In this document: positions 24,001 through 26,905 of the stretch, piece after piece
Numbering within the stretch: position 1 is the first letter of the stretch
Layout: each line of letters begins with the position of its first letter
The notes under the pieces: model-generated
What the model saw: only the letters and a program-made list of their open reading frames with translations
Told to the model about the DNA's origin: nothing
Database searches by the model: none
Program-made: the position numbers and the translations under genes
NCBI GenBank assembly: GCA_963773905.1
Contig: CAVZDB010000008.1
Location: 506,905-570,904, forward strand
Length of the DNA stretch: 64,000 nucleotides
Reading direction: 5' to 3'
DNA from: an uncultured Acidobacteriota bacterium
Lineage (GTDB): Bacteria; Acidobacteriota; Thermoanaerobaculia; UBA5066; Gp7-AA6

Positions 24001-24025
24001 TGGCGGCCGACGGGACTCGAGCCGG
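24001..24025 (-). repeat. Direct repeat of the tRNA-Asp 3' end (att-like scar)
   Basis: 'tggcggccgacgggactcgagccgg' matches 26829-26855 'tggcggggccgacgggactcgaacccg' (23/25 identical with a 2-nt gap) in the same orientation. Confidence 0.55.
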
Positions 24026-24168
24026 AGGCTTCCCGTCTTACTCCAGTCAGGTCAAGGGTCGAGTATTCGGCTGCCCATGCTTCAGTTCCTCTCGCTGCTC
24101 CGCGCCCGCGCCGCGTCGCGTTCCGAGAGGTTCAACCGCCGCGTTGTCTACTTCTTCTCGAGCAACCC

Positions 24169-26508
24169 TCAAGGAAGAGAGAAGGTCTTCGTCACGAAGA
24201 CGGCCATCTGATCGCGAAGGACGGGATCGCCGGGGCAGAAAATGTCATTGCCGCAGCCCGCGGTGATCAGTTCGATGAAGAGCTGACTGATCCAGTCTGC
24301 GTACTGGGACGGGCAAGGGACGTCGGTGAAGAAGGGGTGACACGGTGGCGGCACGTAGGAAGCGCCGTGATGGGCTTTGAGCAGAAAAACCGCCATTTGC
24401 TCCCGGAGCACGGGGTCCGCGGGGCAGTAATTGCCTCCGCCGCAGCCGGCGGTGATGCCCTCCGCCGCGAGAGCTTCGATCCAGGGCGCAAATTGACTGG
24501 GGCAGGGCACGTCCGTGAAGACGCCCGAGCAGGGGGGCGGCGTGTAACACGCGCCGTGCCTGCCCTTGAGCAGGAAGACGGCCATCTGCTCGCGCAGAGT
24601 CGGATCGGTGCCCCCGTAGTTACCGTTACCCACGCCCGCCGCGACAGCGTTGCTCACCAGGTGCACGACGGCGTCGTGGAATTGATTGCTGGGAGGCATG
24701 TCCGCAAAGTCGGTCAGCCAGCCGTTCGGGAGCGTGCTCGACAGCCCGCTGGGGACGGCGACGGTAAGATCGTGGAGCGTCCCGGCCGGAAATGCCGGAA
24801 TGGTCGCCGTGATCGTCGTCTTGCTCGTGGCCGCGACATTCGTGGCGGGAACTCCGCCAACGGTGACGGTCGCGCCGATCTCGAACTCCATCCCCTTGAC
24901 CGTCACGCTCGTCGTCTGCCCCGCGGGGCCAGACAGCGGCGCCACCGTGAAAACGAGCCGCTGCGAGAACTCCGAGGTGTTCCCCTCGGGGTCGGTGGCG
25001 GTCGCGGTCACGAGCTGACCGGCGGACAGAACCACGGGAACGTCGGCGGCGAATGTGGCATTACCGAATCCGTCCGTCATGACGGACAGCGAGGTGAGGT
25101 AGGTCTCCCCCTCGAGAGGAGCGCGCGGCCGTGGCGGGCAGGCCGGGTTCGAGAAGAGGTCGATGCCGTAGGCCAATGAGGCCTTGCTGTTGAGCTTTCC
25201 TTCGATGTGGGTCGTCGACACTCCCGGCGTCACGCTCGTGACGATCGGGAAGTTCTGCAAACCGTTCGGGCCGTCGTCGACGTCGTTGGCGTCGTTCACG
25301 GTGATGAAATTGCCGTTGCCGTTGGAGTCTTCGAGATCGATGCCGATCGGGGCGTTTTCGAAGACACGGTTTCCTCGGATCGTCACCTGGCTGGCGAAGA
25401 CGTAGACGCCCGACTGATAACCGCCCTTGTTGAACGCGATGACATTTCCCTCTCCGGGTCCGGTTCCACCGATCAGAACGCCGTCGCTGAATACGGCGAT
25501 GCCGCCGCCCTCGCTGCCGGCGTTTTTTCCGAGATCGATCGTCGCGGTCTCGTCGGTGCCGATGAAGTTGCCCTGGATGACGGCGGCGATGGGTGCGGGG
25601 CCACCGACCACGATTCCGGTGCTCGTTGCGGCGATGACGTTGCCCTTGATCGTCGCGCCGTGGCCTCCCTGGATCATGATGCCCGAGCCGAGGACGGGTT
25701 TCGTCCCGGTGACGTCGGTGCCCATGTAGTTCCCCAGAATCTGGACTTGATCGGCTCCGTCCTGGACGATGATCCCTGTCCCGGAAATCACGTTTCGATC
25801 CTCAGGCGTATTCCCTCCGATGATCACGCCGGCAGAGCCAAATACCCACATCCCGAGGAGAGACTGGCCGAGCGGAGCGTTACCCGCAGCGTTGATTCCG
25901 ATGAAGTTTCCTTGGATCAGGGTGGCCGTGGCGTTGGCACCGAGAAAGGCCTCGGCGAGGACGTTGCCGCCGAGGACCCTGACGCCGACCGCGTTGTCGA
26001 TGAAGAGCCCACCCCCCGTCCAAGTGCTTCCGGACGCGTCGGTCCCGATGTAATTTCCGCTGAGGATCGCCCCGTCACTTCCTCCCGTGAAATGAATTCC
26101 CGGGACCACGAGCCCGGATACGACCATTTGGGGAAAGACTCCGCCGTTGCCCGCATTGACCTGGAGGGGCGGGCCGGTGATCTCGATCAAGAGGACGGAA
26201 TTCAAGCCGCTCCCCGGGGGAGCCGTGTTGGCGGCGGCACCCGGTTGAGAGTAGCCCTCGATGGCGACGGGCTGAGTGATGGGAGGCAGAGGCGACAGGG
26301 CCGCGATCGTCTGCACGCCGGTTCCGGGAATGTTGAAGTCGATCGTGTTGACGTCCATCGTGGCGTTCGAGTCGAGGATGGCCTGACGCAGCGAGCCCGG
26401 GCCGGAGTCGTTCGCATTCGTGACCAGGAACGTCGTGAAGGCATCGACGCGGGTGCTGAGAACGAGCAATGCCAGAAACGTCGAAACGAGGCGAAGGGAC
26501 GCTTTCAT
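24169..26508 (-). CDS. Secreted cell-surface protein: parallel beta-helix repeats, IPT/TIG-like domain and three C-terminal SLH domains
   Basis: Signal peptide 'MKASLRLVSTFLALLVLSTRVDA' (ATG at 26508). Gly/Asn-rich beta-helix repeats. Three repeats of 'F.DVPC...W/F..I..L...GIT.GCG.GNYCP.DPV.R.QMAVFL.K'. Confidence 0.8.
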   Translation of the reverse strand: MKASLRLVSTFLALLVLSTRVDAFTTFLVTNANDSGPGSLRQAILDSNATMDVNTIDFNIPGTGVQTIAALSPLPPITQPVAIEGYSQPGAAANTAPPGSGLNSVLLIEITGPPLQVNAGNGGVFPQMVVSGLVVPGIHFTGGSDGAILSGNYIGTDASGSTWTGGGLFIDNAVGVRVLGGNVLAEAFLGANATATLIQGNFIGINAAGNAPLGQSLLGMWVFGSAGVIIGGNTPEDRNVISGTGIIVQDGADQVQILGNYMGTDVTGTKPVLGSGIMIQGGHGATIKGNVIAATSTGIVVGGPAPIAAVIQGNFIGTDETATIDLGKNAGSEGGGIAVFSDGVLIGGTGPGEGNVIAFNKGGYQSGVYVFASQVTIRGNRVFENAPIGIDLEDSNGNGNFITVNDANDVDDGPNGLQNFPIVTSVTPGVSTTHIEGKLNSKASLAYGIDLFSNPACPPRPRAPLEGETYLTSLSVMTDGFGNATFAADVPVVLSAGQLVTATATDPEGNTSEFSQRLVFTVAPLSGPAGQTTSVTVKGMEFEIGATVTVGGVPATNVAATSKTTITATIPAFPAGTLHDLTVAVPSGLSSTLPNGWLTDFADMPPSNQFHDAVVHLVSNAVAAGVGNGNYGGTDPTLREQMAVFLLKGRHGACYTPPPCSGVFTDVPCPSQFAPWIEALAAEGITAGCGGGNYCPADPVLREQMAVFLLKAHHGASYVPPPCHPFFTDVPCPSQYADWISQLFIELITAGCGNDIFCPGDPVLRDQMAVFVTKTFSLP

Positions 26509-26828
26509 GGCCACCTCGGGGCGAGTCGACAGAGGCCGCTCTGCGATTCCGCGATCCGCCCGCGATGATATTCCAAAGGCCGCGCGGCGGACCTGCCCGA
26601 AGGGTTCAGTTTTGAGCGACCGCTCGTGCCGGCGCCGTGGCGGCGCTCCGGCTTCCGTTGGTCCGACACTCCTCTCTATTGCCGGCGCGCGAGGAAGGCC
26701 ACCCGAACGATGACGAGGCCGAGCCGAAAAACCGTCCCGACGCATGCGCTCGCCCGCTCCGCGCCGAGACATCGAGGATGCGCGCCAGGAGAAGAGCGGG
26801 ACCGAAGGACGGCTCGTCACCAAAGAAG

Positions 26829-26905
26829 TGGCGGGGCCGACGGGACTCGAACCCGCGACCTCCGGCGTGACAGGCCGGCGTTCTAACCAACTGAACTACG
26901 ACCCC
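26829..26905 (-). tRNA. tRNA-Asp (anticodon GTC), CCA encoded
   Basis: The reverse complement folds as GGGGTCG/CGGCCCC acceptor, anticodon loop CTGTCAC and T-loop TTCGAGT. It is highly similar to E. coli tRNA-Asp. Confidence 0.9.

Follow-up and report, generated by a model that had tools for sequence, protein, structure and literature searches.

Insertion into tRNA genes is textbook biology for mobile DNA and is normally recognized through the integrase that the island itself carries. Elements that lack a recombinase of their own are also known, such as IMEX (integrative mobile elements exploiting Xer), which use the host XerCD, integrate at dif and often lie in tandem. A further class, the cis-mobilizable elements (CIMEs), comprises deletion derivatives of ICEs (integrative and conjugative elements) or IMEs (integrative and mobilizable elements), in arrays that normally include at least one integrase-bearing element. 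In the signature used by Islander for islands in tRNA genes (tDNA islands), the island restores its target gene, and its far end is recognized by the displaced fragment (PMC4383910). Here we describe a 2.8-kb islet at a tRNA-Asp gene of an uncultured Acidobacteriota bacterium, located in a stretch of 64,000 nucleotides (contig CAVZDB010000008.1, positions 506,905 to 570,904; hereafter the window, in whose coordinates all positions are given unless another contig is named). The islet resembles a tDNA island in its regenerated tRNA, its direct displaced 3' fragment, a block of identity running from the T-loop to the 3' end, and an empty site in relatives; with identity beginning in the T-stem/T-loop, it also resembles the 'J' (T-loop/junction) crossover class (PMC4383910). 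Unlike a tDNA island, it has no tyrosine integrase (PF00589), measures only 2.8 kb and holds a single gene, and Islander would filter it out. Our best reading is that it belongs to a family of tRNA-Asp-targeted cassettes without an integrase and has since decayed.

The target gene, a tRNA-Asp with anticodon GTC at 26829..26905 on the minus strand (Rfam RF00005, 73.3 bits), is the sole tRNA that ARAGORN finds in the window; it is intact, with a regenerated 3' end, and is 100% identical to the tRNA-Asp genes of four related contigs (L001, L003, L004 and L035). Its terminal stretch from the T-stem/T-loop to CCA plus CT, GGTTCGAGTCCCGTCGGCCCCGCCACT, at 26827..26853 (minus strand), forms the attL core, delimited by junction alignments and by alignment to L003 9845-9871. 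The same stretch recurs at the far end as the attR core, the displaced and decayed original 3' end of the tRNA (GG-CTCGAGTCCCGTCGGCC--GCCATT; 23999..24023, minus strand), which was located by repeat search and junction alignment. In the orientation of the tRNA, the sequence of the second copy is GG-CTCGAGTCCCGTCGGCC--GCCA, then TT, and that of the tRNA is GGTTCGAGTCCCGTCGGCCCCGCCA, then CT. The 16-mer GGCCGACGGGACTCGA occurs exactly at two sites only, 24005-24020 and 26835-26850, and an ungapped match covers 24 of 29 positions (24005-24033 against 26835-26863). The 23/25 match to the tRNA end claimed by the first-pass annotation is correct once a 2-nt gap is allowed (TGGCGG--CCGACGGGACTCGAGCCGG), which extends the repeat to the encoded CCA. 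Overall, the attR core keeps 25 of 27 positions, with one 2-nt deletion (CC) and a few substitutions. In local alignments, a repeat score of 20 was reached anywhere in 6 of 200 Markov-simulated windows, and on the same strand within 5 kb downstream in 1 of 2000 simulations. Judged on sequence alone, the repeat appears moderately significant; comparison with relatives settles the question.

Downstream of the islet lies a gene of 168 aa without a family match (23369..23875, minus strand), which is conserved in relatives and, together with its upstream region, constitutes the empty site's B' side. Its homologs on long contigs, P0002 (84% amino-acid identity) and P0003 (79%), stand in the contexts L003 and L004-L013, whose collinearity with the window extends beyond 20 kb in both cases. 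In each, the order is DUF1800, DUF1501, a PKD gene, tRNA-Asp, ~130 nt and the flank gene, with no insert. Alignment by blastn matched window 34831..26827 to L003 1954..9871 (92%) and window 24023..22919 to L003 9845..10948 (88%), so that L003 9845-9871, which covers the terminal 25 nt of the tRNA and the following CT, aligns to both insert ends (26853..26827 and 24023..23997). The break in collinearity falls exactly at the inserted DNA (24024..26826), which both relatives lack. The second copy in the window also stands 34 nt from a conserved GTGTTAAGCTACGA motif, against 36 nt for the real tRNA end in L004. The first-pass annotation had proposed an attL/attR signature of integration, to be doubted if relatives shared the gene order without the repeat; what the two lineages carry instead is the empty site, and the proposal is supported.

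The 2.8 kb was therefore gained precisely, between two direct copies of the tRNA end (25-27 nt), with the displaced original end directly abutting the ancestral downstream flank and the intact tRNA on the other side, as at the two boundaries of a tDNA island. Nucleotide identities are ~92% between window and L003, ~85% between window and L004, and 86% between L003 and L004; because the sister (L003) and the outgroup (L004) are both empty, a single gain in the window lineage is most parsimonious. An origin of the islet through site-specific recombination at tRNA-Asp is, in our view, very probable. That the second copy is a chance repeat, a degraded second tRNA gene or a tRNA-like RNA is extremely improbable. 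A 16-mer repeat is not rare in a 64-kb window of 70% GC, as the simulated windows illustrate, yet the empty-site alignment places the fragment exactly at the tRNA end of the relatives and so already refutes this explanation. In the interval 24001-24082, ARAGORN calls no tRNA and Rfam gives no match at E up to 10; arm plus core show no significant fold (z -1.2 and -0.8, RNA parameters; -1.2 at the second copy itself) and no covariation across six sites (RNAalifold covariation term +1.36). The degraded second tRNA that the first-pass annotation had allowed for is absent, and the sequence upstream of the copy is a conserved non-tRNA arm that also stands beside other tRNA-Asp fragments.

This P arm (24022..24099, minus strand) is a degenerate copy of an attachment-site arm of ~75-100 nt with the family consensus CACGGACAGAAACACGGACAG..CTCGACCTCTGAGCC..TGGAGTTAG..GGAAGCCT.CGGG. 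The first match, obtained by aligning the insert with the surroundings of cargo homologs, was between window 24107..23990 and positions 839-962 of L016 (L016/L017), in non-coding DNA just past a different TIG/SLH gene, and a pattern scan of JGI metagenomes gave three further contigs (L019, L020 and L021). In L016, L020 and L021, ~98 nt of the consensus is shared and is followed by an intact tRNA-Asp 3' core plus CT, with no intact tRNA within view. Altogether, at least four contigs besides the window have the arm next to a 3' fragment of tRNA-Asp, with different neighbouring genes in each: a 999-aa TIG/SLH protein (L016), DUF1254 (L020), HpaB_N-TPR with an esterase and an aminotransferase (L021), and a nitroreductase (L035, described below). 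When the C-terminus of the 999-aa protein was used to extend L016 upstream, only SLH fragments were recovered.

A full nhmmer profile scored 81-103 bits on L016/L017, L020, L021, the window and the first two of three sites in L035 (f1 and f2, below), with the window at 80.8 bits. A leave-one-out, arm-only profile, built from five arms with the tRNA core and the window sequence excluded, gave a single match in the window, at 24088-24022 on the minus strand (33.5 bits, E 1.3e-9), immediately 5' of the tRNA-Asp 3' core, which places the window site in the arm family. The arm contains direct repeats, CACGGACAG, whose window version is GGAACTGAAGCATGGGCAG. Setting aside the weak sites in L019 and at the third position in L035 (f3), arm plus core in the window is the most degenerate full member of the family, with its direct repeat degenerate, one T-stem half damaged and CC lost from the core. 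No integrase gene lies directly beside any of the seven arms, and the family sites share no P' arm. We also observed in L016, at 6106-6126, a 3' remnant of tRNA-Asp that consists of the core alone, with 17-21 nt identical, 5 kb past the arm-plus-core site and between PD40 and MerR genes, which may be a further decayed boundary.

Such sites occur in tandem in L035, which surrounds P0018, a homolog (70%) of the islet's gene; here, three fragments bound four segments over 13.5 kb at the same tRNA-Asp locus. The intact tRNA-Asp (1651-1727) is followed by a first cassette (C1), which extends to the first fragment and holds one 795-aa Beta_helix/NosD-TIG-SLH gene on the opposite strand. The first fragment (f1, arm plus tRNA-Asp core, 4375-4479) and the second (f2, arm plus core, decayed, 8408-8513) enclose C2, with two small ORFs, a 790-aa secreted Trp/Gly/Pro-rich protein without family or PDB sequence match, and a nitroreductase. 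After a spacer of 95 nt, the third fragment (f3, 8608-8705) has a weaker arm plus core and precedes C3, with two small ORFs, P0018, a BNR/Sortilin gene and a deaminase. Homologs of the window's two flank genes follow at 15335-16215. Two beta-helix/TIG/SLH genes are thus among the cargo of this array, and its 13.5 kb contains no Phage_integrase domain, either in precomputed Pfam hits or in rescans of genes without one. A ~45-nt motif, GTTCTAAAATC..TTGGCCCTCGCGCC, is common to the otherwise unrelated contigs L035 (~8545-8590) and L019 (~1325-1370), in each case just downstream of a tRNA-Asp fragment; it occupies most of the gap between f2 and f3. In the literature, we found no description of such cassettes, including none in Thermoanaerobaculia.

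The array also bears on whether the insert is ancestral and was removed precisely from L003 and L004-L013, either by excision or through the repeats recombining with each other. The far more distant L035 has related cargo in the segment nearest the same flank genes, and the nucleotide identity between L035 and the window is higher for cargo genes (74%) than for flank genes (67%). The sequence right after the f3 core, CTTCGGTGACAACGAC, is also similar to CTTCTTTGGTGACGAGCC, with which the window insert starts next to the tRNA. Against this stand the need for two independent precise losses rather than one gain, the different gene content of the L035 segment and the missing arm after its gene. 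We regard ancestry of the insert as very unlikely, and it would in any event still amount to site-specific mobility.

Some variation in the same interval arises by other routes. In two more distant relatives, the DNA between tRNA-Asp and the flank gene holds a MazE/PIN toxin-antitoxin pair with a molybdopterin oxidoreductase (L001 509-4575) or DUF676 with two cytochrome c genes (L037 7234-10468). Neither interval contains tRNA fragments; the interval therefore varies by other means too, and these cases are uninformative on the cassette mechanism. In L014, the closest relative by the flank gene (96% amino-acid identity), the contig starts inside the tRNA-Asp 3' end (positions 1-20, GGCCCCGCCACT...), an assembly break at the repeat that could reflect cassette or strain heterogeneity in the sample. 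A second presence/absence difference lies 1 kb from the islet, where the window has only ~47 nt (~22872-22919) at the position of a Beta-lactamase-family gene in L003 (11055-13019) and L004, the latter with an additional 360-aa gene.

The enclosed DNA was described by the first-pass annotation as encoding only a beta-helix/SLH surface protein and no integrase, and we agree. One credible gene is present, and no integrase domain was detected in the insert. The tRNA-proximal, non-coding P' side (318 nt; 26509..26826, minus strand) has no coding remnant, and its likeness to the sequence that follows f3 in L035 is confined to the first ~15 nt (CTTCTTTGGTGACGA). Six-frame pieces revealed no integrase pseudogene in this region, and no protein-family match in any frame either here or in the 145 nt of non-coding DNA after the stop codon of the cargo gene. 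Across the window, no Phage_integrase was found in 37 scanned ORFs, which cover most of the 64 kb.

On these observations, we hypothesize that a small circular cassette would insert by site-specific (Campbell-type) recombination into the segment of tRNA-Asp from the T-loop to the 3' end. The arm together with the tRNA-identical core would serve as the cassette attP, and a tyrosine-type integrase encoded elsewhere would recombine it with the tRNA, with the crossover presumably at or close to the 7-nt T-loop, which has the two inverted halves of the T-stem on either side. Since the incoming core would restore the tRNA, repeated entry at the regenerated gene could build arrays, and the cassettes would never have had an integrase of their own. 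The decay of the window site (the CC deletion, the damaged T-stem half and the degenerate arm repeats) implies that this cassette is probably fixed, and because its cargo is a surface-anchored beta-helix/TIG/SLH protein, the net effect would be a changed cell-surface repertoire.

We put at about an even chance the view that the islet is natively without an integrase and was moved in trans into tRNA-Asp. The first-pass annotation had left the choice between a decayed integrative element and a tRNA-targeted cassette. The new data lean toward the cassette, for all four fully visible cassettes (the window islet and C1, C2 and C3 of L035) are without an integrase, none of the seven arms adjoins one, and no P' arm is conserved. 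The decayed element stays a rival and a real possibility, although not one that we would expect: a larger tRNA-Asp-specific, integrase-bearing island, ICE or prophage would have suffered an internal deletion that left one cargo gene and both att sites, that is, a CIME in the strict sense. Among the known fates of tDNA islands, decay is the commonest (PMC5704250), and Islander demands an integrase precisely because many candidates have none (PMC4383910). The att site in the window is visibly decayed, as is f2 in L035, and a 71% homolog of the cargo in L018 lies beside two integrase genes and tRNA-like fragments of another tRNA. Conversely, a history of decay fits poorly with the uniform lack of an integrase, with the absence of an integrase pseudogene from the P' region, and with the lack of a conserved P' arm, a feature that elements descending by deletion from one family should still share.

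Several points weigh against movement in trans. The mechanism is read from scars, as neither an integrase nor an excisionase nor a circular junction was seen. The source genome was read over 64 kb and each related locus over ~20 kb; the cognate integrase or an integrase-bearing member may lie beyond these limits, in the DNA upstream of L016 or, in L021, at an upstream distance exceeding 5 kb. The sample is small (~5 independent contexts and the four fully visible cassettes), and C3 of L035 has no recognizable terminal fragment. Furthermore, the attP-like arm has no match in IMG/VR (two patterns), GenBank phages or PLSDB plasmids, which leaves no independent form of a free element. Decay at tRNA hot spots also commonly ends in remnants without an integrase and in tandem accretion, as in CIMEs (PMC5704250). 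A separate search with the 16-mer GGACAGAAACACGGAC gave 13 hits in IMG/VR, none with a tRNA-Asp core nearby, and these were taken as chance.

Compared with described systems, one likeness is to CIMEs and accretion arrays at tRNA 3' ends, in which attL and attR are kept (attR here partly decayed), integration and transfer genes are lacking, and att sites separate the members of an array, as in L035 (PMC5704250). The difference is that no integrase-bearing relative is visible here, and that the cassettes share only a one-sided arm of ~100 nt. We found neither an integrase-bearing relative with the arm nor an integrase pseudogene in the loci and collections searched, a search that did not extend to whole genomes. 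Integron cassettes offer a second parallel, being small integrase-less cargo with one recombination site and standing in tandem at one chromosomal point, as in L035. Unlike integrons, however, no intI lies near the attachment point, where the upstream genes are PKD/DUF1501/DUF1800 (window and L003) or methyltransferase and HTH genes (L035); the site is tRNA-derived and lacks an attC-type fold; and the cassettes can hold several genes in either orientation. The resemblance to IMEX is limited to the lack of a recombinase, as the target here is a tRNA gene and not dif. More tentatively, and with considerable doubt, these features may describe a tRNA-Asp-anchored cassette system, in which cargo with a ~125-nt site (arm and tRNA-identical core) would depend on a separate or chromosomal recombinase, stack at the tRNA 3' end and preferentially shuffle SLH-anchored surface proteins. 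The tRNA gene would there take the place that attI has in an integron.

The cargo gene (24169..26508, minus strand) encodes a secreted protein of 779 aa with Pfam matches to Beta_helix/NosD, TIG and SLH. A signal peptide (MKASLRLVSTFLALLVLSTRVDA) is followed by a right-handed, NosD-like beta-helix, a TIG/IPT domain and three C-terminal SLH-type repeats of 63 aa, which appear as a 189-nt period at the DNA level. The family is very large (6417 hits among 8000 scored candidates), with many paralogs per genome, and the named hits are metagenome-assembled genomes (MAGs) of Thermoanaerobaculia. The GC content at third codon positions is 0.81 for the cargo gene, 0.87-0.92 for its immediate neighbours and 0.80-0.83 for other window genes. 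In the comparison with the flanks that the first-pass annotation proposed, the cargo lies below its immediate neighbours but is not clearly foreign, and base composition is a weak argument for foreign origin, since other window genes reach the same values. Native SLH protein genes lie close by (e.g. 29928-32447, 32680-34983 and 58759-62320). The SLH-type C-terminal module of the cargo is also present in the first two, and 58759-62320 comprises three SLH-domain genes in a row. Elsewhere, the window contains at 40772-48500 a series of genes for Ser/Thr protein kinases with fused PD40/WD40 propellers.

The closest other homologs of the cargo speak to a further alternative, in which a donor segment of tRNA-Asp, cassette and fragment replaced the recipient tRNA by homologous recombination, with crossovers in the 5' part of the tRNA and in the 27-nt core and with no integrase acting in this lineage. 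Three of them (P0015, P0017 and P0019; 68-71%) stand in ordinary context, with a Ser/Thr kinase gene next and no att site directly beside the gene. That the nearest homologs are ordinary chromosomal genes in related genomes is consistent with this alternative, as is a tRNA that is 100% identical across all these genomes, and the final structure would be the same. The right-hand homology, though, amounts to only ~27 nt, and exchange of this kind leaves unexplained both the ~100-nt arm beside unrelated genes and the origin of the first fragment-bounded cassettes. We consider homologous recombination unlikely.

The remaining close homolog, P0016 (71%; L018), adjoins two integrase genes, each abutting an identical 3' fragment of a different tRNA. 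At L018 6147-9290, the two Phage_integrase genes, one of them frameshifted, are each followed by the identical 23-nt tRNA-3'-like sequence TGGTGCGAAAGGGGGGACTCGAA, and an excisionase-like ORF of 52 aa lies between them. These genes look like tandem integrative elements at another tRNA, with the intact tRNA off the contig. The L018 integrase had no match in the window by tblastn.

On the chromosomal side of the tRNA, outside the cassette, a promoter-like site for tRNA-Asp (TTGACT-16-TATCAT; 26970..26997, minus strand) is conserved in relatives. The gap from this promoter to the tRNA contains a 46-nt hairpin-forming insertion (26906..26951, minus strand), which is absent from L003-L013 and lengthens the tRNA leader to ~65 nt instead of ~19 nt. 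The two repeats that the first-pass annotation noted 5' of the tRNA are real, with a size of 2 x 23 nt rather than ~21 nt. A compensatory pair sets their two units apart (GCATCG..CGATGC vs GCGTCG..CGACGC), and the long hairpin that they form together has a predicted energy of -42.4 kcal/mol (z -4.9). A second hairpin-prone insertion of 46 nt (z -3.9) lies ~100 nt from the first, across the tRNA promoter, at 27045-27113, where a 23-nt unit with the last codons and stop of the PKD gene is present in three copies, against one in all relatives.

One clean gain, several unrelated genes at the same arm, and a tandem array, all without an integrase, have in common a conserved arm on one side. If these are only decayed remnants, the locus is a tRNA hot spot of the ordinary kind, albeit one resolved unusually well. 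If the cassettes moved in trans, integrase-based island finders would miss them by design, and the arm profile makes that reading directly testable in genomes and reads. Movement in trans would also give an uncultured soil lineage, whose named relatives are Thermoanaerobaculia MAGs of the Acidobacteriota, a route by which to vary its SLH-anchored beta-helix surface proteins.

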